A stretch of 64,000 nucleotides of DNA from a virus (taxonomy: Duplodnaviria; Caudoviricetes), in the IMG/VR virus record IMGVR_UViG_3300021255_004000, positions 195,308 through 259,307 of that record; one strand, written 5' to 3'. Each line of letters begins with the position of its first letter. Within the stretch, counting starts at the first letter, position 1. Positions 3,626-36,030 of this stretch are shown piece after piece. A model generated the notes under the pieces. The model worked only from the letters and a program-made list of their open reading frames with translations. It was not told where the DNA came from and made no database searches. Made by a program: the position numbers and the translations under genes.

Positions 3626-4933
3626 TTATTTCTCGTAAGTCATACGCCAGTCAATTTCCTTGTGCAGTCTTTCGATTGCTTCAGGATTGCGGCACATATT
3701 CTTTCCAGGTGCATCAGAAAGTTTTGCAACATCCAAGCCGTTTACGATTGCAACCTTGCATACGATATTCAAAGCTTCAATTCCCTGAGGACCTGACCAA
3801 TCAGTTCCGATACCGAATGCAACCTTTGCCTTGCCTTTGAAGTACTTATTGATTTCAGTTGCCTTCTGAAGATTGAGACCGTCACTGAACATCAGAGTTT
3901 TTGTAAGAGGGTCAATTCCCAAGCTCTTGTAATGGGCAATCATTTTGTCACCCCAAGCGTAAGGATCTCCAGAGTCGTGGCGTACACCGCTGAACAAAGT
4001 TGCAAATGTTTTGCGGAAGTCCTTCAAGAAAACATCTGTTCCGATTGTGTCAGTTAAGGCGATACCGTTCATTGTTCCGTATTCTTTAACCCAAGCATCA
4101 AGTGCGAACCAGTTGCTGTAAGCAGGGTTGTGGTAGAGGTGTCCCTGGCCGACTGTCATAATGAACTCGTGAGCCATTGTACCAACGGCGGTAACACCGT
4201 ACTTCATTGCAAGATACATATTTGATGTACCGATGAAGCCCTGGATAGGTCCGATTGCATTGTGCTTTTTCTCTTCGACAAGGCGGCCAATCAACCAATC
4301 CTGAAGTTCAAAAGAAACGCGGCGGCGGGCACCAAACTCTGAGAAGATGCCAGGTGCAAAAATGCCTTCGCGCATAAAGCGGAGCTTTTCTTCAGTCTTT
4401 TCTTTGAATTCTTTTGCAAGCTTTTCGTAATCATAGTGATTGCGGTAGTATGTTTCTGCGGCGATTTCGAGAACAGGAATTTCGTAATCTGAGATTTTCC
4501 ACTGAACACCTTTTGTGTGAATTGCGAGTCCTGAGATAGGATCATCACCGATTTCAAAGTCTTCAAAATGAGGCTTCCAATCGCGTTCAACTTCAATAAA
4601 GTTGTTGTGAATCCAAGGACGGGTTGCAGGATCTCCAAGGAAAGCGAGTTCCTCTTCTGTGTAACGAAGTGCGCAGTAAGCGCGGATCTGATTTGTAATT
4701 TCTTCACGGTCAGCAGCAGTGTACTTTTCGTGAGATGCAGCATCCCCGACATTGCGAGCCTTGAAGTCCCAAGTTGCGTGATCACCACTGAACTGATGCA
4801 AGTAAGCCTGTTTCATTGACTTCTTGTACTGATCTGTATCAAGCGGTGACTTGACCATAGGCGGATATTTCAAATTAAACGCCTTCATAACAACTGACTC
4901 ATCGTCAGTCAACTTACCATTGATTTCCCACAT
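3626..4933 (-). CDS. pncB: nicotinate phosphoribosyltransferase
   Basis: LDTDQYK, EFGARRR, GTSN, GTMAHE, ALTDT, GVRHDSGDP, FGIGT, KLSDAPGK motifs. Confidence 0.93.
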   Translation of the reverse strand: MWEINGKLTDDESVVMKAFNLKYPPMVKSPLDTDQYKKSMKQAYLHQFSGDHATWDFKARNVGDAASHEKYTAADREEITNQIRAYCALRYTEEELAFLGDPATRPWIHNNFIEVERDWKPHFEDFEIGDDPISGLAIHTKGVQWKISDYEIPVLEIAAETYYRNHYDYEKLAKEFKEKTEEKLRFMREGIFAPGIFSEFGARRRVSFELQDWLIGRLVEEKKHNAIGPIQGFIGTSNMYLAMKYGVTAVGTMAHEFIMTVGQGHLYHNPAYSNWFALDAWVKEYGTMNGIALTDTIGTDVFLKDFRKTFATLFSGVRHDSGDPYAWGDKMIAHYKSLGIDPLTKTLMFSDGLNLQKATEINKYFKGKAKVAFGIGTDWSGPQGIEALNIVCKVAIVNGLDVAKLSDAPGKNMCRNPEAIERLHKEIDWRMTYEK

Positions 4934-14579: not shown

Positions 14580-15488
14580 TTAATTTGGCTTCCACATAGG
14601 ATTTTTATTTCTCATTCTTTGCTGTTGTTTGTAACTCATTTTTGTTTTAACAGGCTTTTGTTCTTCCTCATCTGCATCAAGCAATGACTGCATTCTTGTC
14701 ATAGCATCTTCATCACTCATATCCATTGTGATCATGCCTTTTGCTTTATTGCTTAACACTGGCTGAATATATGCGATTGCATCATTTACTGGTTCCATTG
14801 CAAACTCAGTAAACAGCTGAGGCCTATAAGGAATGCGGCTTTCACTGTCACCGTCTTTTATCTCTGGAATGTCTTCACCTTCAAAGAAATCAGGCCAAGC
14901 ATCAAGAATTAAACTTATATCTTTTTCATTAAAATCTTCAACTTTAACATCTTGTTCTTTTAAGTAATCTTTAAACTCTTTTGCAGTACCACACTTTTTA
15001 ATAAAGTCTGAGAGTGAAATTGTGTTGAAAAGATCTGCTTTAATTAAAGAAATTGTAGAAATTCCACCGTGTGAAAATTGCCCATCATCTTCATCAATCT
15101 TCTCATCAAAAAGCAGTCTGGCGTGTTCTTCATTTGCAGCCAATGCCTTCCTATAAGGCGTTACTTTTTTGCCGTTTAGATTTGTTCCCCACTTCTTTCC
15201 AAGTTCAACAGCTTTGTTCTGTGCTTCTTCTGCAGGAGTAAGTTTATACTTTTCAGCAAGTTCTTTTTTGATTTTGTCAAAGTCTGGAAAGTCAAACTGG
15301 ATTGTCCAATCAGAGTGATCATCAGCTTCTGTAAGTTTACCACCAAGCAAACTTGCAACATCAGCAGAAACAACTTGTCGAGAAACGCCTCCTCGATCTA
15401 TACTTTTTGACATATCTGGTATTTGTGACCAAGCGTCAAGAAAGTCTTTACTTCTTTTCACCACTATACTTTCATTGAATCTTTGCAT
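14580..15488 (-). CDS. hypothetical protein
   Basis: 302 aa ORF. Confidence 0.6.
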   Translation of the reverse strand: MQRFNESIVVKRSKDFLDAWSQIPDMSKSIDRGGVSRQVVSADVASLLGGKLTEADDHSDWTIQFDFPDFDKIKKELAEKYKLTPAEEAQNKAVELGKKWGTNLNGKKVTPYRKALAANEEHARLLFDEKIDEDDGQFSHGGISTISLIKADLFNTISLSDFIKKCGTAKEFKDYLKEQDVKVEDFNEKDISLILDAWPDFFEGEDIPEIKDGDSESRIPYRPQLFTEFAMEPVNDAIAYIQPVLSNKAKGMITMDMSDEDAMTRMQSLLDADEEEQKPVKTKMSYKQQQRMRNKNPMWKPN

Positions 15489-15491
15489 TCG

Positions 15492-15899
15492 TTACTCCAT
15501 AAATTGTTCCATCTGTAAACCACCAGCCAAATATCCTGTAACTCTTTTTGGTAAACCTGTCGTCATAACTGGAATCATTGTACCATAAGTAACAGATCCT
15601 TGTACATTAGTTTGAATTGCACCAGTTTTCTTTAATTCATATTTATAATACTCATCATAAGAGTCACAGTACTCAACTTCTTTATTTTCAAAATATGTTG
15701 GCAGATAATCTATGATTTGTTCAGCATCTTCATAAGTAACAATAATTTTGCCATCTTTTGTCTGTCCCATAGTTGCATCAAGATATGCTTTCAAACTGTC
15801 TGTTGTGCCAAATGACATACTGCGAAACTTGATTGGGCCTGTGTTTCCAAATGAAGGAACAGGAGATGCTATTCTTCTTATACTTGACAATATTCCCAT
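15492..15899 (-). CDS. hypothetical protein
   Basis: 135 aa; GTTAATAT motif directly upstream. Confidence 0.6.
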   Translation of the reverse strand: MGILSSIRRIASPVPSFGNTGPIKFRSMSFGTTDSLKAYLDATMGQTKDGKIIVTYEDAEQIIDYLPTYFENKEVEYCDSYDEYYKYELKKTGAIQTNVQGSVTYGTMIPVMTTGLPKRVTGYLAGGLQMEQFME

Positions 15900-15913: not shown

Positions 15914-15937
15914 AAAAAAGGCGAGCCGAAGCCCGCC
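15914..15937 (-). terminator. intrinsic terminator closing the flaA unit
   Basis: GGCGGGC-TTCG-GCTCGCC-TTTTTT on the minus strand. Confidence 0.75.
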
Positions 15938-15960
15938 AGTAGAGTCCGAGACCCTAGGTT

Positions 15961-16791
15961 TTATTTTGCATCTTCTTTTTCTTCTGAAGCCATCAAAGTT
16001 TTTTCAACTTCACGAATGCGGTTGCGTTCTGCAATATCTGCTTTAACTCGCTTTTCAACATTATCTGTTTCTTTTATGCCAAACTCTTCTTTAAGAGTTT
16101 TTGCTGCTTCAAGCTGTTCGTCTGTAAATGCTTTATCACAAACAACCACAACAGATTTCAAATAAAAGATGGAATATTCACTGTAAGTACTGTAACCTGA
16201 AGGAGCATTTGTTTTAATGCGGAAGCCTCTTAAATATAAACCGTCCGCATCTGCACCGAGTACAGGAGATGTTACAATCTCGCGTTTCTTATAATCTTTT
16301 TCATACAATGGATTTTCAAAAGTTAGTGTGAACTCTTCCATTGACTTAATTGCATTAAAGTCCTGCGGCATTTTAATCGACTTAATAGGACCCATAGGCG
16401 ATGTTGAGTAAAGTAATATAATTTCATCGTATGGACGATTAGTTGTTGCAGTAACTTTAATTGATTTTATTGCACCAGCATTCTGAATAACACCTGCGCC
16501 ATCAACGCCTTCATTAAGGAACGAAGGATATGCAGTCAAAATATCATAGGATGTTGAAATATCCTTAGGTACTTTTGTTGCAAGGAAACGCAAGCCTTTT
16601 TCATTTGGCTCAAGAATTGTCAACTCTGACTTGTTAAAGTAGCCACTTGTTGAGCTAATTTCAAAGTTGCTTACATAATCATAACCATCAACATCAGCTT
16701 TTGCTGCTGAGCTGAACAACACCTGTTCTTGTGCGCAAAGCAATATACAAGTTGCAAACATTACACACAAGAATGACAAAAATCTTTTCAC
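15961..16791 (-). CDS. flaA: spirochete flagellar filament sheath protein FlaA homolog
   Basis: Sec signal peptide; GAGVIQNAGAIKSIKV, FENPLYEKDYKKREIVTSPV, YLKSVVVVCDKA and EEFGI..ERNRIREVEKTLMASE parallel remembered Treponema FlaA motifs (GVIKNVGTIKSIAV, WNNPSYISDVRSRE, YFKDVKIIYDKA). Confidence 0.75.
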   Translation of the reverse strand: MKRFLSFLCVMFATCILLCAQEQVLFSSAAKADVDGYDYVSNFEISSTSGYFNKSELTILEPNEKGLRFLATKVPKDISTSYDILTAYPSFLNEGVDGAGVIQNAGAIKSIKVTATTNRPYDEIILLYSTSPMGPIKSIKMPQDFNAIKSMEEFTLTFENPLYEKDYKKREIVTSPVLGADADGLYLRGFRIKTNAPSGYSTYSEYSIFYLKSVVVVCDKAFTDEQLEAAKTLKEEFGIKETDNVEKRVKADIAERNRIREVEKTLMASEEKEDAK

Positions 16792-17126
16792 TGTCGTACT
16801 CCTATGTACACATCAAAAACATCATCAGCGCAGTCATTCTTCAAAGAAATAAGCCATACTTCTTTGAAGCCGCCAATGTTTTTATCGTTCAATTTGTTGA
16901 TGAATGACAATAAATCAACCAAGTATTTATTCCATTCACCACTTCCATTCTTTCCACCATAAAGATGGACAACCAAATGAGTTCCTTCTTTGACTTTTGC
17001 AACAAAGTCAAGTTTTAAGTTGGACCATTCACATCCTTCCAATGATCTTGTAACTCTTGTTACTATATCACCATTAGGAATATCTATCCAAGTCTCGCCA
17101 AATTCGTTAGTTATTTTATCTTCCAA
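16788..17126 (-). CDS. hypothetical protein
   Basis: 112 aa; overlaps the flaA start. Confidence 0.55.
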   Translation of the reverse strand: MEDKITNEFGETWIDIPNGDIVTRVTRSLEGCEWSNLKLDFVAKVKEGTHLVVHLYGGKNGSGEWNKYLVDLLSFINKLNDKNIGGFKEVWLISLKNDCADDVFDVYIGVRQ

Positions 17127-17419
17127 TTTTCTGTCCTGTGTAATTGAATAAAGCAGAAATCATCTGTTTCTGCAACCAAATGATCAGTTGGCTCAAGATA
17201 TCCAATCTGAGTATATGCTGATGAATTGACTGCATCTTTCAATGTCTTTTCTGTGTAAGCAAGATCATTGTCAGCAGTATAATTTCCGTAAAGTTCTTTT
17301 ACCAAAGTTTCTTTTGGATTCTTGTCGTCAGGACTTACAGCCGCAACAAGATCCGCTGCTACAGAGTTGTTGATAAAAAACCTAACCTTACAAAGAATAA
17401 GTCCTTTCTTCATAATCAA
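17111..17419 (-). CDS. hypothetical protein
   Basis: 102 aa; GGAGG RBS after a GTTAATATA motif. Confidence 0.55.
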   Translation of the reverse strand: MIMKKGLILCKVRFFINNSVAADLVAAVSPDDKNPKETLVKELYGNYTADNDLAYTEKTLKDAVNSSAYTQIGYLEPTDHLVAETDDFCFIQLHRTENWKIK

Positions 17420-17439
17420 CCTCCATAAGTTATATTAAC

Positions 17440-18291
17440 TTATTTAAGAAGCGCAAGTACTGTTGATGACTGACTGTTTGCATTTGCCAACATTGCAGTT
17501 GACGCCTGCTGAAGAATTGCGTTCTTAGTATAATCAACCATTGCTGTTGCCATATCTTCATCACGGATAACGCTTTCTGAAGATGTAAGGTTTTCAGCAG
17601 CAACATCAATACCTTTCTGTGTAAGTTCCATTCTGTTCTGAACTGCACCAAGATCAGCACGCTGCTTGTTTACAACTTTCAATGCTTCGTCGACTGTTGC
17701 GATAGTTGAGTTTGCTTCATCAGCAGATGCGATAGAAATTGTGTTACCTGCTTCTCCCTGGATATCTTTCAAACCAAGTGCAGCAGCTGTTGCAGATTCG
17801 ATGTTGATGCTAATACGCTGGTCAGCATTTGCGCCAATCTGGAATGTCATTTCAGTTCCTGCTTCTTTTCCAAAGCGGCCTGTCAACATATTCATACCAT
17901 TGAACTGTGCAGAACTTGCAATGCGGTCAACTTCTGAAACAAGCTGAGAAACTTCAACCTGAATCTGCATACGGTCTTCATCACTGTAAAGTCCATTGCT
18001 TGACTGAACAGCAAGTTCACGAATACGCTGCAAGATGTCAGAAGTTTCCTGAAGGTAACCTTCTGTTGTCTGAATGAAGCTTACGCCGTTTGAAACATTT
18101 TTTGATGCCTGATTAAGACCACGAATCTGTGAACGCATCTTTTCAGAGATTGCAAGGCCGGCAGCATCGTCACCAGCACGATTGATTTTCTCTCCACTTG
18201 AGAGCTTTTCCATTGAGCTTTTCAATGCAGCAGTGTTAAGTCCTTCCTGTCTTGCTGCAAATATTGAACTCATATTATGATTTATCACCAT
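17440..18291 (-). CDS. flaB: flagellin, spirochete periplasmic flagellar core protein FlaB
   Basis: [84 protein letters not shown]; the 283 aa length lacking D2/D3 is typical of Treponema FlaB. Confidence 0.96.
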
Positions 18292-18297
18292 ATTGTA

Positions 18298-18351
18298 AGC
18301 CCCTCCTATAGGCTACATAAGGTGGCTTCCTTGCCACCTTATTATATTAAC
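18298..18351 (-). promoter_or_regulatory. flaB leader: GTTAATATA promoter plus two GGA-loop hairpins
   Basis: AAGGTGGC-AAGGAA-GCCACCTT and AGCC-TATAGGAGG-GGCT. Confidence 0.7.
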
Positions 18352-22101: not shown

Positions 22102-23181
22102 ATGTGGCAATTCAGGCCACGAGGAGTTAAAGTGTTAACGATAGACAATTCACAAGAATTGACTGTTCACGACTTTATTAAGAATAAAGAACATCAACCT
22201 TTCAAAGGTTGGCGAACAGTTGCAAAAACCGAAAACTTCGGTCTTATCTTTGGTTGTACTGCTCCAACATTTGCTGGAATGTTGAAACAGGCAAACTTCA
22301 CTGAAGCTGAATGTGATGAGTTCATACAGCTTACAAATAACACACAGGCATATAACGCTGCACTTGCAAACAATATGGGCAGTAAGCATCCTATGAAAAC
22401 TGCTGATGTAAAGTTTATAGTTGTTGCAGATGCAATGCGTACATCATTCTTTGAAACATATCAAGGCCTTATGGGTCGTATCAAGCGAGAGCAGGCTTTT
22501 GCTCTCGCGCACGGTTATGTTCGTTCTTGGCACGGACCTGTAAGACATCTTGCTGAATTAAGATATTTATCAGTTTCACCTAAAGGTGAATTGCAGGGAG
22601 CAGACCGCTCTCTTTATTCTAAAATGTTTTCCCATCTTTTGAACAACGCGTGTAACTCAACAATTCAGACAATGGAATCCCGCATCGCTTTTTCAACTTG
22701 GGTAAACATTGCAAAGTATCTTGCTCTTTGGGGACTTAAATCATATTGTTGGAACAACATCCACGACTCTCTTGACTTTTACATTTACAAGCCTGAACTT
22801 GAGTTGGTTGTTGCATTAGCTAATGCTTGTGCTGCTTGGGACCGTGAACCTGTAAAAGGCATTCATATGTCATTTGATGCAGAGATTTCTGATCTTCAAG
22901 ATTATGAACATCGTTGTGCAACATATTACAAAGCAGGTGTTGGTGTTGATGTTTTGCCTATTGAAGAAGCGATTGAACATTATAACAAAAAGAATGGAAC
23001 AAACCTTAAGTGGTATGGTTGTGATTGGGAATATGACAAGTATGCTTCAAATCGACTTTCAATGTATGAGAAGTATTGTCAGTTAAACGGTAAAGAAAAT
23101 GTTGATGAATGGCTTGAACGATGGGGCGGTCCTGTAATCAATCAGCCTGCAATGGCTACTAGGAGAGTTGTAAATGGCTAA
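22102..23181 (+). CDS. family A DNA polymerase, C-terminal fragment (motifs B and C)
   Basis: RTVAKTENFGLIFG (motif B), GYVRSWHG, NSTIQ, NNIHDSLDF (motif C); probable start GTG at 22132 after GAGGAG. Confidence 0.88.
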   Translation: MWQFRPRGVKVLTIDNSQELTVHDFIKNKEHQPFKGWRTVAKTENFGLIFGCTAPTFAGMLKQANFTEAECDEFIQLTNNTQAYNAALANNMGSKHPMKTADVKFIVVADAMRTSFFETYQGLMGRIKREQAFALAHGYVRSWHGPVRHLAELRYLSVSPKGELQGADRSLYSKMFSHLLNNACNSTIQTMESRIAFSTWVNIAKYLALWGLKSYCWNNIHDSLDFYIYKPELELVVALANACAAWDREPVKGIHMSFDAEISDLQDYEHRCATYYKAGVGVDVLPIEEAIEHYNKKNGTNLKWYGCDWEYDKYASNRLSMYEKYCQLNGKENVDEWLERWGGPVINQPAMATRRVVNG

Positions 23182-23905
23182 GACAGAAGCAAAGAAATCA
23201 AAAATTGAAACACCTATGACAAAGTCAGTTGCAAGACGCGTTAAGATTCAAAAAGGCGAGCCTATTATTGAGCATAAAGAAGAAAAGCCTGCCCCAAAAA
23301 AACGCAGAACAAAGGCTGAAATCGAAGCAGAGAAGAGAGCAAAAGCTGAACGCAAAGCAGAGCTTGCAAGAAAGAAAGCAGAGCGTGAAGCAAAGAAACT
23401 TGCTCGTGAACAGAAGAAAGCTGAAAAAGAAGCCAAGATAAAAGCAAAGGCAGATGCTGTTGCTGCAAAAGAAAAAGAAAAAATTGAACTTGCAAAGCAG
23501 CAAAAAGAAATTGATAAACTTAAGGTTGACACAAAGAAGTATTGTAAGCCTGTCCCAATGACAAAGGCAGATAGAGACCACATCAAAAAGATTATGGCAA
23601 ATCCTGACTTTAAGTTGTCAATGTGTACACAGACTTATGGTAAAAGTACTTTCAGAGTTCTGAATCATCGTGAAAATGAACTTGTCATTTCTGTTGATGA
23701 TGTTTATTATTTTTATAATAAGACAACTGATAAAGGAATCAACTTTGGACCAATCTTTGAAACTTGGCTGTGCACAAGTAAACGGATTCCTTGGACAGAT
23801 CCAGAACCTGAAGTTAATATACCAAAACAAGAAGTTGCTCAGAAGGTTGTTGTAACAGATGAGCAGAAAAAAGCAATTATGAGAAAGATGAGAGGTAGAC
23901 GATAA
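23174..23905 (+). CDS. Lys/Ala/Glu-rich basic protein
   Basis: KKRRTKAEIEAEK... charged helical region; translationally coupled between the two polymerase fragments. Confidence 0.65.
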   Translation: MAKTEAKKSKIETPMTKSVARRVKIQKGEPIIEHKEEKPAPKKRRTKAEIEAEKRAKAERKAELARKKAEREAKKLAREQKKAEKEAKIKAKADAVAAKEKEKIELAKQQKEIDKLKVDTKKYCKPVPMTKADRDHIKKIMANPDFKLSMCTQTYGKSTFRVLNHRENELVISVDDVYYFYNKTTDKGINFGPIFETWLCTSKRIPWTDPEPEVNIPKQEVAQKVVVTDEQKKAIMRKMRGRR

Positions 23906-23906
23906 T

Positions 23907-25922
23907 ATGCCGTTTATGTTCGGGGGCATCCGTGAAAATGCCAAAGCAAAAGACTTGAAAAAAGCTGAGGATATGATTGATGTTATCGTTTGTGATCATC
24001 AGTCTGATGTAGGTGATTATTACATCTTCTTGCTTGATAAACAACCTACTGATGCAATTAAGCAGCTTATATTAAATCGTATCCGTGATGAAGGATACAC
24101 AAACTATATGGTACTTAACGCTGTTGAGTGTAAGTATCATAAAGAAGATTTGAAAGGTGAAGGTCTTACTGACTTTATGGTAAAGCACCGTTCAACTTGG
24201 CGTTCATACTTATATGATTACGAAGGCAAACACTGTAAAGCGATTATGTGTTTTGGTCCTGCGATGTATTCAATAAATGCTTCATCTGACATTATGACAG
24301 GTGACTTTTATGATACGAAGATGTTGCACCCATACTATTATATGGGTCACGAAATCTTTAAGTATGATACATTTGTTTTCCCAGTTGATGGGATTGATGA
24401 CCTTTACCCAGTTTTGAAAAACTCAAGTAACACTGTCAACTTCAAGACAAGATTCTTCTTCGAACAGTTGAAGAATATGAAGAAAGAAAAATATTCTTGG
24501 CAGCCCAACTTGAATGAACCGAAGTATGTTGTAATCAACAGTAAAGAAGAAGCTGATGATATGTTCAGACGCAATATGAATATGAAGTTGGTTGCATTCG
24601 ATACTGAAACAAACGGTTTGAAGTTTTATAAAAACTACATTCACTGTCTTACAATCTGTTGGGACGGCATCACAGGTTATTATGTACCTTGGAAGTTTGT
24701 TGACCCAGTTCTCTTTGAAGAAAATGTAATGTCGTGTGAACACCGTACTGGTGCTAACCCAAAGTTCGACTTGAAGTTCTTTTGGCAACACGGTGTATCA
24801 AGACGCGTAAATGTTACAGATGCAACGGACCGACTTGCGCATTGTATTACATCTGAGGTAAAGTCAGGTTTGAAGCCGCTTGCATATCGTTACACTCCAT
24901 TTGGTGGTTATGACATCAAACTTGACAAGTGGAAGAAAGAAACAAAGTGTGATGACTATACAAAGATACCAACAGAGATTTTGTCAAAGTATGCAACGAT
25001 GGATGCGATTGCAACTTGGCGTATTCAAGTTGAACTTTGGTTGCTTGTTGATGAAATCGACAGAAACTTTCCAAATGAAAAATATCCTGAGTGGACAATT
25101 CGTCGTTGGTATGAAACACAATGTATGGAAATCTACAAGGAAATCTGTAATGTTGAATGGCGCGGTATTTATGTAAATGTTGAACTTATGAATAAGTATC
25201 GTGAAGAACTTACAAAAGACCTTGATGAAAAAGAAGCAGAACTTCGTAAGATATGGGGTGTAGGTCCTGACTTCAACATTGGCTCAACAACTGAAGTTGG
25301 AAAGTTGTTTGAAAGATTGGGATGGGAATGTTTCGGCCGAAATGATGCTGGAGTTTATTTGACAAATGATGAAGCGATGGGAGCTTGGATAAGACAGAAT
25401 ATGCCAGGCGCTGCATTGCTTGCAGAATGGCGTACTGAAAGAACATCAAGAAACTCATTCTTAGGTATCATTGATGAAAAAGGACAGGAAACAGGTTGGT
25501 TGCAATATATTTATCACGATGAGAAAGATGGCAATCCTGAAGAAGGTGGTTCATATCGAGTTCAGCAGTCTTATCTTGTAATGGGAACGGAAACTTATCG
25601 TTTCATCGGTAAAGATCCAAACTTCCAAAACATTCCTACACGCAACAAGTATGCAGGATATGTAAAGAAATGTATTGATACACCACCTGCTGATTTGTAC
25701 ACAATCGTAGGTGACAGCGGAAAAGAGTACAACCTTGCTGAGTTTGAACTTGTTTACACAAACGAGGGTTATAAAACAGCAAAGGAATGTTTCTCAAATA
25801 TGCGTCGTTTGAAGTTTATTGAAAATGACCCAGAACATCCTGCAGTGTTAAGATGCGGTTTTGACAAACAAGAAGATGGTTCTTTCAACACTCCAGATCC
25901 TAAAGTTTGGTTTGGAGCATAA
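23907..25922 (+). CDS. family A DNA polymerase, N-terminal fragment (UDG-like domain?, 3'-5' exonuclease, thumb)
   Basis: AFDTETNG (Exo I), NPKFDL (Exo II), YATMDA (Exo III), FNIGS, TETYRF..KDPNFQNIP; ends before motif A. Confidence 0.88.
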   Translation: MPFMFGGIRENAKAKDLKKAEDMIDVIVCDHQSDVGDYYIFLLDKQPTDAIKQLILNRIRDEGYTNYMVLNAVECKYHKEDLKGEGLTDFMVKHRSTWRSYLYDYEGKHCKAIMCFGPAMYSINASSDIMTGDFYDTKMLHPYYYMGHEIFKYDTFVFPVDGIDDLYPVLKNSSNTVNFKTRFFFEQLKNMKKEKYSWQPNLNEPKYVVINSKEEADDMFRRNMNMKLVAFDTETNGLKFYKNYIHCLTICWDGITGYYVPWKFVDPVLFEENVMSCEHRTGANPKFDLKFFWQHGVSRRVNVTDATDRLAHCITSEVKSGLKPLAYRYTPFGGYDIKLDKWKKETKCDDYTKIPTEILSKYATMDAIATWRIQVELWLLVDEIDRNFPNEKYPEWTIRRWYETQCMEIYKEICNVEWRGIYVNVELMNKYREELTKDLDEKEAELRKIWGVGPDFNIGSTTEVGKLFERLGWECFGRNDAGVYLTNDEAMGAWIRQNMPGAALLAEWRTERTSRNSFLGIIDEKGQETGWLQYIYHDEKDGNPEEGGSYRVQQSYLVMGTETYRFIGKDPNFQNIPTRNKYAGYVKKCIDTPPADLYTIVGDSGKEYNLAEFELVYTNEGYKTAKECFSNMRRLKFIENDPEHPAVLRCGFDKQEDGSFNTPDPKVWFGA

Positions 25923-33579: not shown

Positions 33580-36030
33580 ATGGCAGACAAAAAACATCGC
33601 AATCCTATAAGAATTGCAACTACTACTCAAGCGCGTGAAGCAGATGCAATTAGCGCGCTCTTATCTCGTGAGTTGCTTTATAATCGTAACAACAAGACAT
33701 TAGGTATTGTTCTTGAAGATGAAGAAGGCAACAAATATCGTCAAATTGTTTCAGGCTTAGTTGATGAAGTAAACATCACTAAGAACGAAAACTTTGAAAC
33801 AAAATTAAAAGAAGACATTGTCATTGATACTGTTACAACACAAGCAGATCATAATGGTGTTGATTGGAAATCACAGTATAAAATAGCTGAAACAACATCT
33901 GAACGAACTGTAATTTTATTGTGTACACAGGACATCGACTCAGAAACCGACATTGGTGTTATTGGTGGAGAAATCCTTGAAGTCGGAAAGAATGTCTTTG
34001 GTCACTATCAAATATCATTAACATCAACAGGTTCACGACTCCTTAAAGGAGCAACAACATTTGAAAAGAAAGCCCGCCTCGTATTGGCAAAATATAACGG
34101 AAACTATTACTACGGTATTAAGTTTAAGTCAGCTGCACCTGCGAACATCTATTTCTCAGGTTGGTCAAAAATCCCTGGCGGCATTTCAGCTCCGTCATAC
34201 ACGACCTATAATGATGGAGATTTGTCAGAAGTCATCGAGCTCGATGATGATTCTGACACAGGGACGGAAGTAGTTGATTTTGAACTTTTGACTTATGATG
34301 ATATCTCTTGGGAGTTTTTAACTGCGCCTTATGTAAGAACGGAGGCGTCATCAGCAACCCAATATTATCCAACACAGCAAAACCTTACAAGAAGAACCGA
34401 CTTCACAGGCGTGGGTACAGCACCTTTTGGTACAGGTTATGCACATAATGAAAGATATTATGGATTGCACTGGTATGATAAAATTGATTATACATACAAT
34501 GACAATTCTTGGAAAGTTACACACGCAATTTCATTTGGAAGTGATACACGAGGCTCATATCTTCAGTCAGGAAGCAGCGGCGTTGCTGGTTACATTTCTA
34601 TCCCAGGAAACTTCAAAGGCGAAGTAGGCTTTTATGTTTACAACAACACAAACTCTACAAGAAACTTTAGATTGTTTAACATAAAAGCAGACAGATTTGC
34701 TGGCACAGAAGCTGCTGATTATGTAGCAGTCCCAGCTTATACAGCACAATGGGTTATGTTCCGTGATCTTCCTGCAGGTGAATATTATTTTTATCAATCA
34801 GGCGGATTTAGATACTATTCTGTTTATGAAGGCTATACAACTGTAACTGAAACAGTTCGTGATTCAAATTGGAATCAGAACGGTGACAACAATGGCTATT
34901 CACTTACAAATGGTTTGAAGATATCATCATCAAAAGATACATCTTGGTATGAAGATGCATCAGCAGGTAATAACGGTTACATCGACTTTGCTGAAGCAGG
35001 GGGACAAACTGATCCTGCGATGACTTTAACTGTTTTAGGAAAAGCATTCATAAAAGTAGGCTTTACTTCTATTGATGGCAACAACACAAACATTCGTATA
35101 AGTGAGACGCTTGACACATCTGATGAAAAGTGGAGTTCATCTGTATCAGTTGACAATTCAGATACGACAACCATTAAAGAATGTGTTTATGACTATAATT
35201 CTGGTGTGGGTGAAGTTTACATTATGAATGAAGTTGGCCCAGTTAGAATCTTGTATGTTGAAATCGACTATGATGATAGCATTTCTGACGGCAGTGCTAT
35301 TTATAACATAATCAAAGATTTGCCTGACACTGGTGAAGATGGTTCACCTCATATCATTAGACTTTCAGATGAAATAACTAAAGAAGCAATTCTTAAAATT
35401 GCGAAAGCCCTTAAAGATCCTACAAAGCAAGTTATCGTTGACTTGAGCAAATGTACAATGGAAGCTCAATATGTTGATTGGACAGCAGACACAGATCTTC
35501 ACGGAGCATTCAGAGATTGCGTTTCATTAAGAGAGTTTTATTACCCAATGAATGTCACATCAACTGGTGGTAACACTTTTAAGAATTGTTCATTCTTAAG
35601 AAAAGTTGTTTTCAATAATGAAATGCAAAGAATAGGTGGATCAGATCAAGTTTGGTCTTGGGAAAACAATGCTATGTTTGCAGGTGCAAGAATCAAAACA
35701 TTGTTCATTCCTAAATCTGTAAATAAGTTTGGTGGTTACCCATTCTCATATTCAAATGTTGTGAATCTTTTTATTGAAGAAGGTTCTAGTTTGATTAACA
35801 ATGCATCATCTTTAGGACAGTGGAATACTTGGGTAGGAACAAAAGAAAATCTTCGTTTCAGAGTTCCTCAAAGCATTTATGATGTTGTCAAAAACACAAA
35901 CATAGCATTCCCTGGAGCCGACGGAGATGGTGTTGAAATGATTGGTTCTGATTGTAAAATCTCCGACCATATTGCTCTTTGGGACGGTGATTATGACAGC
36001 ATTGACTATACAGCAAAGTATGACTTGTAG
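33580..36030 (+). CDS. tail fibre / adhesin-like protein with C-terminal BspA/TpLRR (LRR_5) repeats
   Basis: AFRDCVSLREF.YP.NVTSTG..TFKNCSFLRKV...IKTLFIPKSVNKFG repeats; beta-rich middle region. Confidence 0.6.
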   Translation: MADKKHRNPIRIATTTQAREADAISALLSRELLYNRNNKTLGIVLEDEEGNKYRQIVSGLVDEVNITKNENFETKLKEDIVIDTVTTQADHNGVDWKSQYKIAETTSERTVILLCTQDIDSETDIGVIGGEILEVGKNVFGHYQISLTSTGSRLLKGATTFEKKARLVLAKYNGNYYYGIKFKSAAPANIYFSGWSKIPGGISAPSYTTYNDGDLSEVIELDDDSDTGTEVVDFELLTYDDISWEFLTAPYVRTEASSATQYYPTQQNLTRRTDFTGVGTAPFGTGYAHNERYYGLHWYDKIDYTYNDNSWKVTHAISFGSDTRGSYLQSGSSGVAGYISIPGNFKGEVGFYVYNNTNSTRNFRLFNIKADRFAGTEAADYVAVPAYTAQWVMFRDLPAGEYYFYQSGGFRYYSVYEGYTTVTETVRDSNWNQNGDNNGYSLTNGLKISSSKDTSWYEDASAGNNGYIDFAEAGGQTDPAMTLTVLGKAFIKVGFTSIDGNNTNIRISETLDTSDEKWSSSVSVDNSDTTTIKECVYDYNSGVGEVYIMNEVGPVRILYVEIDYDDSISDGSAIYNIIKDLPDTGEDGSPHIIRLSDEITKEAILKIAKALKDPTKQVIVDLSKCTMEAQYVDWTADTDLHGAFRDCVSLREFYYPMNVTSTGGNTFKNCSFLRKVVFNNEMQRIGGSDQVWSWENNAMFAGARIKTLFIPKSVNKFGGYPFSYSNVVNLFIEEGSSLINNASSLGQWNTWVGTKENLRFRVPQSIYDVVKNTNIAFPGADGDGVEMIGSDCKISDHIALWDGDYDSIDYTAKYDL

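Follow-up and report, generated by a model that had tools for sequence, protein, structure and literature searches.

The window, by which we mean the whole stretch of 64,000 nucleotides analysed here (positions 195,308 to 259,307 of the IMG/VR virus record IMGVR_UViG_3300021255_004000), carries a group of four genes on its minus strand. The first (flaB, 17440..18291) encodes a 283-aa core flagellin of the Treponema type with both Flagellin_N and Flagellin_C domains, and the last (flaA-like, 15961..16791) a 276-aa protein with a Sec signal, assigned by PF04620 and predicted fold to the FlaA sheath family of spirochetes. Between them lie two small ORFs, as the preliminary description had it, of 100 aa (g102, 17111..17413; syntenic in related phages) and 112 aa (g112, 16788..17126; its stop overlaps the start of the FlaA-like gene). 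Upstream of the flagellin gene are a 5' leader with a predicted hairpin and Shine-Dalgarno stem-loop, marked out by folding and conservation (18292..18342), and an exact copy of an enriched promoter-like motif, GTTAATATA (18343..18351). A second exact copy is found directly past the flagellin stop, 17 nt before the ATG of g102 (17431..17439), and the group ends at a predicted intrinsic terminator with a 7-bp GC-rich stem, a TTCG loop and a T-run (15920..15937, z -3.48); all of these features lie on the minus strand.

Genes with PHROG matches lie in the window (exonuclease, SbcD, a split DNA polymerase, RIIA, helicase, UvsX, tail tube), which bears out the earlier remark that the flagellar genes are embedded among phage genes. 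On gene content (RIIA, UvsX), and with a relative of ~300 kb that has terminal repeats, the source is classed as a tailed jumbo phage of lytic type. This relative (G006; 300,878 bp, direct terminal repeats, CheckV 100%) represents a complete genome. The tail-tube match inside the window supplies evidence of structural genes, and the Pfam models Terminase_6N and Phage_sheath_1 found no match in G006. We infer from sequence that the host is a gut or rumen Treponema; knowledge of lytic phages of this genus is scant. A CRISPR-spacer link to the host was tried and rejected: when 301 Treponema genomes were compared with a 20-kb part of the window, matches of 25–38 nt at 90–100% identity came up, and none of the 12 sites fetched lay in a repeat-spacer array.

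The flagellin is intact and of the Treponema type, as had been proposed. PF00669 (Flagellin_N, E 6e-42) aligns residues 3–139 with positions 1–137 of the 139-position model and PF00700 (Flagellin_C, E 1.3e-21) residues 198–282 with positions 2–86 of 86, leaving a short, core-only (D0/D1) architecture. Among cellular flagellins, the best 79 loci all belong to Treponema or Treponemataceae (65–71% identity). In a tree, the window flagellin clusters with other phage flagellins in a clade of their own, 29–35% diverged from any cellular flagellin found, with the nearest phage copy in the related locus L002 (85%). Values of dN/dS are 0.11–0.24 overall, and 0.14 at dS 0.49 in the least saturated pair (L004 and L010). 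The segment QRIRELAV, from which a TLR5-type effect on the animal host had been thought conceivable, is indeed retained but adds nothing to that idea: it sits in the D1 polymerisation core, is nearly invariant across all flagellins aligned here, and is kept because filament assembly needs this core. Phage FlaB would presumably use the flagellar type III system for its export and polymerise into a filament.

The ORF at 15961 had been described as a signal-peptide-bearing, diverged and shortened FlaA, and this identification is upheld by a PF04620 score of 35.4 bits (cut-off 25; relatives score 30.4–40 bits) and by FlaA1 as the top fold match. The PF04620 match involves residues 97–221 only and spans only positions 109–224 of the 230-position model, while the N-terminal alignment to solved FlaA consists of the signal peptide and first strand. 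When a profile of the FlaA-like family was compared with solved structures, only FlaA was found (chains 9pim, E 1.1e-12, and 10pl, E 1.7e-11); in Treponema genomes it matched only the canonical long FlaA paralog, and in 14 control genomes nothing. The AF2 model (pLDDT 79.3) has FlaA1 9cyn as its best Foldseek matches, and VIA-align superposes it on 9cyn with Z 13.2 and an rmsd of 3.5 Å over 166 residues, the next unrelated structure reaching Z 11.0. All 26 aligned family members begin with MKR/K, a hydrophobic stretch and then A↓QE or A↓EE; in the window this signal and cleavage region (A↓QE), read by eye from the sequence and alignments, aligns with the solved FlaA chain and with FA↓(D/E)E of four Treponema FlaA. 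Identity to cellular Treponema FlaA is 26–30% over ~180 residues, the phage proteins being ~70–100 residues shorter, and among phages the window copy is closest to that of L008 (74%), followed by L002 (44%) and L004 (28%). The phage proteins fall into two subfamilies, one with the window, L008, L007 and L104 and the other with L004 and L010. Within subfamilies dN/dS is 0.10–0.26 (0.10 at dS 0.37 for L004 and L010), so that the dN/dS check suggested earlier for both genes returned purifying selection, with values far below 1. Judged by profile and modelled fold, the protein belongs, in a diverged and shortened form, to the FlaA sheath family of spirochetes, and it is probably bound for the periplasm via Sec.

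Pairing of FlaB with a FlaA-like protein recurs on phage contigs of 92–553 kb. The two genes are neighbours in L004 and L010. In the window, as in L008 (295 kb) and in L007 (553 kb), they stand two to three genes from each other, and in G006 the distance is ~50 kb; they hence do not form an obligate operon. Relatives of the FlaA-like gene were located via flagellin loci and a protein database, and 7 of the 7 phage lineages with this gene that were examined also have a flagellin; the fragment L005 has flagellin alone. The histories of the two genes among phages disagree, as the closest relative of the window is L002 for one and L008 for the other. A single-sequence pattern scan of viral contigs with the FlaA-like protein returned none, and the 50,697 records of deposited phages held no FlaA relative; flagellin matches in the latter were all below 60% identity and came mostly from short fragments or from faecal contigs that lack annotation. 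Profile searches of G006 detected a single Flagellin_N match and no FliS, FliW, CsrA, FliD or sigma-70-family protein, so the statement that no other flagellar genes are present holds in a complete genome. On sequence comparison, then, a clade of such phages carries selected copies of FlaB and FlaA.

This recurrence bears on the possibility that the genes are functionless passengers, either recently captured host DNA or the product of a chimeric contig. Some of the deposited "phage" records with flagellin matches are short or dubious, and MAGs do contain mis-binned contigs of jumbo phages. A chimera is nevertheless excluded by the identical four-gene order in three separate SRA-run assemblies and by the same arrangement on many long contigs of up to 553 kb, while the separate clade and 29–35% divergence of the phage flagellins, dN/dS far below 1, and the phage-type promoter motifs and phage-style operon around the genes all speak against recent capture. 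We give the passenger or artefact reading next to no credence and regard it as effectively refuted.

It is conceivable that the two proteins are not a functional pair at all, the FlaA-like protein having turned to binding, for instance, glycan or peptidoglycan in the periplasm or envelope, or to masking a receptor for superinfection exclusion or lysis timing, and the flagellin having an unrelated role. The extreme divergence and shortening relative to cellular FlaA are compatible with this, as are the separation of the genes in G006 and their incongruent histories; the beta-jelly-roll fold of the model is also common to many carbohydrate-binding modules (Z 8–11), and a changed function is possible on these grounds. 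At the same time, FlaA1 remains the best structural match (Z 13.2 compared with at most 11.0 for the carbohydrate-binding modules), the profile is specific for FlaA in structures and for the canonical long FlaA in Treponema genomes, and the FlaA-like gene kept company with flagellin in every lineage examined. We therefore consider repurposing improbable. Superinfection exclusion, raised in the preliminary description, is unlikely since the filaments are concealed in the periplasm. A complex prediction with two copies of phage FlaB and the mature FlaA-like protein, run without controls, gave no answer (score 0.00) and weighs neither way on binding.

There are 13 exact copies of GTTAATATA in the window against 0.49 expected, a count that none of 100 shuffles reached. 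Most are located 10–60 nt 5' of gene starts on the coding strand, often at the head of replication and metabolism genes, and the motif is present clade-wide across the phage loci and missing in four Treponema loci. The claim that it precedes both flagellar genes is right for the flagellin (18351–18343), and a copy does stand before the first small ORF (17439–17431, a junction also found in L108), but the FlaA-like gene itself is the third gene of the unit begun by g102, its GTG start overlapping the g112 stop (GTGA). No sigma-28 box was seen in the window, where the -10 position upstream of the flagellin gene holds the phage motif; in the relatives L002 and L004, however, the corresponding site carries GCCGATAA and GTCGATAA.

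Homologs of g102 adjoin the flagellin in L002 and the FlaA-like gene in L008, and only close homologs were found; g112 is present in L108–L110. Neither protein matched Pfam or NCBIfam, and in a protein atlas the look-alikes of g112 were unnamed viral clusters, with nothing usable for g102. The latter is predicted to adopt an alpha/beta fold (pLDDT 78; two long strands, two helices and a third strand) that matched nothing in the PDB at E <= 0.001. The g102 model, which mixes strands and helices, differs from an all-helical fold of the FliS type.

Contigs from RNA libraries of four bovine-gut studies cover and bridge the FlaA-like gene, g112, g102 and the flagellin gene (e.g. a contig of 2,009 nt at 15979–17967), and those of three studies stop at 15955–15979, near the terminator at 15920–15937. 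Such contigs are a hint of expression and cannot prove transcription, strand or level. Depth peaks at 17840–18173 were discarded as a phage signal, as they stem from the conserved flagellin of other organisms, and the near-lack of cover at 14667–15835 in four RNA-library runs is not usable as a sign of silence or of missing DNA.

Jumbo phages often have unusual fibres, and in this genome virion and replication genes are interleaved, which would leave room for the flagellin and/or the FlaA-like protein to serve as fibres or decorations of the phage particle. The promoter motif is that of replication and metabolism genes rather than of a virion-gene context. Furthermore, virion assembly takes place in the cytoplasm, away from the periplasm to which the conserved Sec signal would direct the FlaA-like protein, and polymerisation of flagellin normally requires type III export and a cap. 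A virion role is thus very unlikely in our view.

The 51-nt flagellin leader is predicted to fold into a hairpin of 10 bp whose AAGGAA loop exposes GGA, followed by a stem-loop with the AGGAGG Shine-Dalgarno sequence (MFE -22.7 kcal/mol, z -4.77; 0 of 200 shuffles equal). The hairpin is kept in L004, L005, L006 and L108 with different stem sequences, i.e. through compensatory changes. The same design of GGA-loop hairpin and Shine-Dalgarno sequence recurs among the flaB leaders of Treponema (68 of 131, compared with 14 of 84 control upstream regions), and in T. denticola CsrA sites are reported to lie near the Shine-Dalgarno sequences of flaB1 and flaB2 (PMC9481697). The phage leader is therefore of the host type and resembles CsrA sites, which remain putative here; CsrA may control translation of phage flaB.

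The earlier suggestion that phage FlaB acts as a sink for FliW has to be weighed at this point. As a decoy, FlaB would bind host FliW (or FliS) in the cytoplasm and shift the FliW-CsrA switch, and the freed CsrA would reprogramme host translation, entry into the filament being incidental. Work cited in PMC9481697 has established such a switch between FliW, CsrA and flagellin for B. subtilis, B. burgdorferi and C. jejuni; fliW and csrA are adjacent in 4 of 4 Treponema genomes, the D0/D1 termini of the phage flagellin are intact, and on the phage side, as searched in G006, there is neither FliW nor CsrA. Yet CsrA freed in this way would shut off the decoy too through its CsrA-site-like leader, the whole polymerisation core is conserved beyond the C-terminal FliW-binding region, and a sink leaves unexplained why a Sec-exported sheath protein is conserved alongside and kept under purifying selection. 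Given the host-type leader and the sheath protein, we view the sink as possible but less favoured, and on balance unlikely; the leader points instead to the phage joining host flagellin homeostasis rather than subverting it.

We suggest that in infected Treponema phage FlaB and FlaA are exported, in a host-dependent manner, into the periplasmic flagella and keep or alter motility, a proposal that we hold to be somewhat better than evenly balanced. Under this proposal the phage would bring a "filament kit" that comprises the FlaB core and the Sec-exported FlaA-like protein, the latter in a unit with g102 and g112, with flaB and this unit transcribed from phage promoters of the GTTAATATA type. 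For type III export, as well as for a chaperone and a cap, FlaB would depend on the host flagellum, because the phage encodes no such parts. It would polymerise to form the core of the periplasmic filament, and host CsrA-FliW homeostasis would go on governing its translation via the retained host-type leader. The FlaA-like protein would cross the inner membrane by Sec and coat this core, and the infected cell would go on building flagella, or build phage-specified ones. Periplasmic flagella underlie both motility and cell shape in spirochetes, and motility, chemotaxis and shape could be sustained or altered through a long jumbo-phage infection. The idea that the phage remodels or sustains host endoflagella is thus the best reading of two conserved genes under selection: during infection the virus probably maintains the motility organelle of its host or rebuilds it, though incorporation into filaments and a benefit to the phage remain inferential, and the benefit to a phage of lytic type is conjecture. 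The wider proposition, that a widespread clade of lytic-type jumbo or mega-phages specifies a core and a streamlined sheath and plugs into host export and CsrA-FliW so that infected cells stay motile or change their motility, is put forward more tentatively, at slightly less than an even chance.

No paper describing a phage FlaB and FlaA pair was found in the literature, nor one mentioning the related NCBI record, and two gut jumbo-phage surveys mention neither flagella nor Treponema; a small-mammal virome paper was set aside as a precedent as it covers Helicobacter FlaB only. The preliminary description was thus right about the pair, but phage flagellin itself is already known (PMC13418256, PMC11740651), and what is new here is its occurrence in lytic-type jumbo phages, with spirochete endoflagella and with both core and sheath. 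An AMG table of the rumen virome gives viral fliC and fliD on lytic contigs a one-line mention (PMC11740651), with no spirochete assignment, FlaA gene, synteny, selection or regulatory analysis; the search of G006, by contrast, found no FliD.

If our reading is correct, neither a multi-component kit for a motility organelle nor a flagellar sheath protein would have been known from a virus before. Viral remodelling of flagella would extend from temperate prophages of enterobacteria to lytic-type jumbo phages, and from exposed filaments, to which arguments from immunity or phage receptors apply, to periplasmic ones, for which they fail and the selected trait would instead be motility or chemotaxis of the infected cell. 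The phage proteins offer a natural minimal FlaA (~250 mature residues) and a diverged FlaB for studies of sheath-core recognition, and the compact flaB leader lends itself to tests of how CsrA-FliW control works in Treponema. Ecological relevance in rumen and hindgut is suggested by the abundance of the FlaA-like family in animal-gut metagenomes, where clustering at 90% identity yields at least 158 groups, some of which have ~500 members.

The closest cellular counterpart is the periplasmic filament of T. denticola, with a FlaB1–3 core and a FlaA sheath (PMC9481697; solved chains 9pim/9pin/10pl and FlaA1 9cyn). PMC9481697 distinguishes thin filaments of ~13–14 nm from thick ones of ~20–21 nm. 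The phage FlaA-like protein shares with it the family HMM, the signal and cleavage region, the beta-sandwich and the C-terminal helices, and the phage leader matches the design of one of the tandem cellular flaB genes. Unlike in Treponema, the genes are virus-encoded, the promoter appears to be the phage motif rather than sigma-28 or sigma-70, and there is one FlaA-family copy in the phage compared with three paralogs in cellular genomes. By analogy, the situation resembles that of cyanophages, whose psbA and psbD supply photosystem subunits so that the host machine runs during infection: in both cases the virus would supply structural subunits of a host complex useful to virus production. The cyanophage target, however, is an energy-transducing complex, whereas here it is a motility organelle, with no established turnover argument for flagellin.

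Among phage-borne flagellins, the best-described case is FliC^P, carried by prophages of Enterobacter and relatives together with the RNA-guided repressor TldR; host machinery builds FliC^P into the filament and the identity of the flagellum changes (PMC13418256; bioRxiv 10.1101/2023.11.30.569447). Both are flagellins with a conserved D0/D1 core, and the present pair may work in a like manner. It does not belong to that system: a Pfam search of the ten ORFs around the genes gave no TnpB/TldR-type domain, and where FliC^P is coupled to a TnpB-derived repressor of host fliC, the phage gene here has a host-type leader that resembles CsrA sites. FliC^P-TldR is a one-component system of temperate prophages, with variable outer domains, acting on the external flagella of enterobacteria, whereas the lytic-type jumbo phages described here combine a D0/D1-only FlaB with a separate, putatively Sec-exported sheath protein and would act on the periplasmic flagella of spirochetes.

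The 276-aa product of the ORF at window 15961-16791 (minus strand), which the preliminary description had taken for a shortened FlaA homolog, belongs to the FlaA family both by sequence and by fold. It scores 35.4 bits against PF04620 (curated cut-off 25), with the match limited to the C-terminal half of the model, and shares 26-30% pairwise identity with cellular Treponema FlaA over ~180 C-terminal residues. In each of four Treponema genomes (loci L090-L101) the FlaA family has three members, a long canonical FlaA (243-264 bits) plus a tandem pair of shorter paralogues (93-157 bits), and the profile of the phage family matches only the long form (E 4e-11 to 6e-17). The solved structures that match this profile are exclusively 'flagellar filament outer layer protein' chains (9pim, E 1.1e-12; 10pl, E 1.7e-11); the C-terminal helices are part of the alignment, to which the first strand and the signal peptide contribute weakly. 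The AlphaFold model (pLDDT 79.3, pTM 0.76) is a beta-sandwich with two C-terminal helices, and no structure matches it better than that of the sheath protein FlaA1 (9cyn; Foldseek E 8e-7; VIA-align Z 13.2, rmsd 3.5 A, 166 residues), which stands above the carbohydrate-binding jelly rolls in the background (Z ≤ 11). A K/R-rich N-terminus, followed by a hydrophobic stretch and A|(Q/E)E, is kept in 26/26 aligned family members, in agreement with cellular FlaA, where the cleavage region reads FA|(D/E)E. Since profile, structural match and N-terminus all agree with FlaA, we conclude that this is a genuine FlaA, strongly diverged and ~70-100 residues shorter. The conserved signal-type N-terminus speaks for export by Sec into the periplasm, the site of endoflagella. 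The FlaA-like proteins of the phages fall into two deep subfamilies (window, L008, L007 and L104 versus L004 and L010) with 28-31% identity between them. An unlikely rival reading is that the phage genes are flagellar parts repurposed for another role.

Pairing of this gene with flagellin is not an artefact of a chimeric assembly, because the window gene order (flagellin, 100 aa, 112/117 aa, FlaA-like, 108, 303, AAA) is reproduced exactly in three different SRA-run assemblies. Gene neighbourhoods showed the pair to recur in related phages: the two genes are adjacent in L004 (92 kb) and in the 306-kb L010 (wrongly binned into a 'Fimenecus' MAG), two genes apart in L008 (295-kb NCBI record), three apart in L007 (553-kb ENA contig) and ~50 kb apart in G006, a complete IMG/VR relative (300,878 bp, direct terminal repeats, CheckV 100% complete). 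IMG/VR contigs carry flagellin relatives at 60-100% identity, and FlaA-like homologues form at least 158 clusters (54-97% identity) on contigs of up to 553 kb, with a PF04620 match in nearly all of the 120 clusters listed. No FlaA relative was found among 50,697 deposited phage records. Viral fliC/fliD appear, unanalysed, in the AMG categories of one rumen-virome study (PMC11740651); our literature search found no description of spirochete-type flagellin in phages, of any viral FlaA sheath gene, of their pairing in a virus, or of the retained leader discussed below.

In public databases, jumbo-phage contigs of this clade are assigned to MAGs of unrelated bacteria, L010 (JAZNWZ010000130.1) to 'Candidatus Fimenecus' and P0049 to 'Bacteroidales'. 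The window is phage DNA: PHROG-recognisable functions in it include exonuclease, SbcD, a split family-A DNA polymerase, RIIA, helicase, UvsX, NAD-dependent ligase and NAPRTase. The polymerase lies in two ORFs (359 and 671 aa; 22102-25922, plus strand), and the 243-aa ORF between them has no Pfam match. BspA-type leucine-rich repeats are present in an 816-aa protein (33580-36030, plus; LRR_5, E 2.5e-9), which may be another host-derived surface-type protein; an LRR_5-type domain also lies near flagellin in the 553-kb contig (L007:4387-5826). Nearby NAD+ salvage genes (NAPRTase, 3626-4933, minus; isochorismatase and NAD synthase in L008:19433-20834) resemble the NAD+ systems of gut jumbo phages in a study that does not mention flagella (PMC11662467). 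A tail tube protein is also recognisable (E 7e-12). Use of the flagellar proteins in the virion is a further, improbable rival reading.

The 283-aa flagellin (18291-17440, minus) matches Flagellin_N (E 6e-42) and Flagellin_C (E 1e-21) end to end. It is preceded by GTTAATATA (18351-18343, minus) and a structured 51-nt leader between motif and start, while a second GTTAATATA directly follows its stop codon (17439-17431, minus). Then come, on the same strand, ORFs of 100 aa (17413-17111) and 112 aa (17126-16788), the FlaA-like ORF, whose GTG start overlaps the preceding stop (GTGA), and a clean intrinsic terminator (15937-15920; 7-bp stem with 6 GC pairs, T-run). FlaA-like is thus translationally coupled and comes third in a unit headed by the motif, and the preliminary description, which placed the motif before both genes, was right for flagellin only. 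With 13 exact copies in the window versus 0.49 expected, GTTAATATA is strongly over-represented; many copies head replication and metabolism genes (e.g., AAA ATPase, polymerase fragment), and it has no conserved -35 partner. It occurs clade-wide in the phage loci, and four Treponema loci lack it.

Several details of neighbouring and related loci deserve mention. Downstream of FlaA-like, each of three phages encodes two small paralogous proteins (window 15492-15899 and 14580-15488; L004:11835-13061; L008:10803-11618) with a common 'I-L-D-x-(W/Y)-P-x-F-F-(D/E)-G'-type motif and no family match. In a near relative (L108:1300-1390; FlaA-like 96% identical) the flagellin frame opens at ATC/ATA instead of ATG (LIIINHNM), possibly a non-canonical start, and the gene caller therefore cut the protein to 277 aa. 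In L008 (GCA_902725545.1, 6917-8991) a 108-aa 5' flagellin fragment ending in QRIREL is followed by a 288-aa ORF of HNH/NUMOD-like homing-endonuclease type and then by a complete flagellin; a NUMOD3 ORF also splits the exonuclease gene at this locus.

The flagellin leader is predicted to fold (MFE -22.7 kcal/mol, z -4.77) into a 10-bp hairpin with a six-base AAGGAA loop, followed by a stem-loop carrying the AGGAGG Shine-Dalgarno. Related phages retain the hairpin on stems of differing sequence (GGTGGC/GCCACC in the window, GGTAGC/GCTACC in L004, GTGGAA/TTCCAC in L005, AGGTAAA/TTTACCT in L108). The design, mostly an AGGA loop and then AAGGAGGAA, occurs in 68/131 cellular Treponema flaB leaders, essentially those of one of the two tandem copies, versus 14/84 regions upstream of other ORFs in the window. 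A classical CsrA target combines GGA in the loop of a hairpin with GGA at the Shine-Dalgarno. The fliW and csrA genes are adjacent in 4/4 Treponema genomes tested, and in T. denticola the CsrA homologue of the fliW-csrA cluster is reported to have sites for binding close to the Shine-Dalgarno of flaB1 and flaB2 (Kurniyati et al., PMC9481697). The complete phage relative encodes no FliW, CsrA, FliS, FliD or sigma-70-family factor, in line with the earlier statement that other flagellar genes are lacking. An unlikely rival reading is that phage flagellin acts as a FliW/CsrA decoy.

Upstream of the hairpin, the -10 position holds sigma-28-like boxes in two relatives (GCCGATAA in L002, GTCGATAA in L004), whereas the window and its closest relative carry GTTAATATA there, agreeing with the earlier report of no sigma28 promoter in the window. 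A TAAA lies 16 nt upstream of GCCGATAA in L002 (region compared, 9890-10000 in L002 and L004). The pattern resembles an exchange of promoters on a host gene acquired by the phage. We infer that flagellin came with its host promoter and leader, and that some lineages may have converted the promoter to the phage class while keeping the translational control element. The host-type regulatory leader is a new observation of the present analysis.

All of the best 79 cellular flagellin matches (65-71% identity) are from Treponema, Treponemataceae or unresolved spirochete MAGs, mostly of gut origin (rumen, horse, other animals). The FlaA family is specific to spirochetes (0/14 control genomes matched). 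The CRISPR-spacer approach gave no independent host evidence; bovine-gut RNA libraries contain 90-99% identical sequence, in keeping with a Treponema host from rumen or hindgut. A maximum-likelihood tree built from 139 flagellins places the seven phage copies together on one side of a single branch (SH-aLRT 81), with 97% support for a core of four (window, L002, L004, L010), and outside both clades of tandem Treponema flaB paralogues. The tree is unrooted, and is compatible with, not proof of, one ancient flagellin capture. The window flagellin is nearest to L002 (85%), then L004 (78%), while its FlaA-like protein is nearest to L008 (70-74%), followed by L104 of the L002 genome (44%) and L004 at only 28%. 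These incongruent histories point to recombination or separate captures.

Estimated dN/dS lies far under 1 for both genes. In the least saturated pair (L004-L010, Nei-Gojobori), dN/dS is 0.14 for flagellin (dS 0.49) and 0.10 for FlaA-like (dS 0.37); other within-subfamily pairs give 0.11-0.26 with saturated dS. The rival view of the two as passenger genes is very improbable. RNA-library contigs from four bovine-gut studies cover and bridge FlaA-like, both small ORFs and flagellin (e.g., 2,009 nt, window 15979-17967, ~94% identical; 823 nt, 15955-16783; 1,265 nt, 16700-17946), and contig ends from 3/4 studies fall within 20-45 nt of the predicted terminator. This is a hint, not proof, of transcription, as such contigs cannot judge DNA carry-over, strand or level.

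The best-supported model, to which we give somewhat better than even chances, is that of a host-dependent filament kit, its export, assembly and fitness steps being conjectural. Phage FlaB would be translated under host CsrA-FliW homeostasis, exported by the host type III apparatus and polymerised into the filament core, while FlaA-like would cross by Sec and coat that core, so that infected cells might continue to produce periplasmic flagella, or produce changed ones. FlaA determines how thick and how helical the T. denticola filament is, and every FlaB there has a part in motility (PMC9481697); therefore, supplying both could keep the infected cell swimming and responding by chemotaxis, or retune both, through a long jumbo-phage cycle. 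A precedent from Enterobacter shows that host filaments can be taken over by a phage flagellin (PMC13418256).
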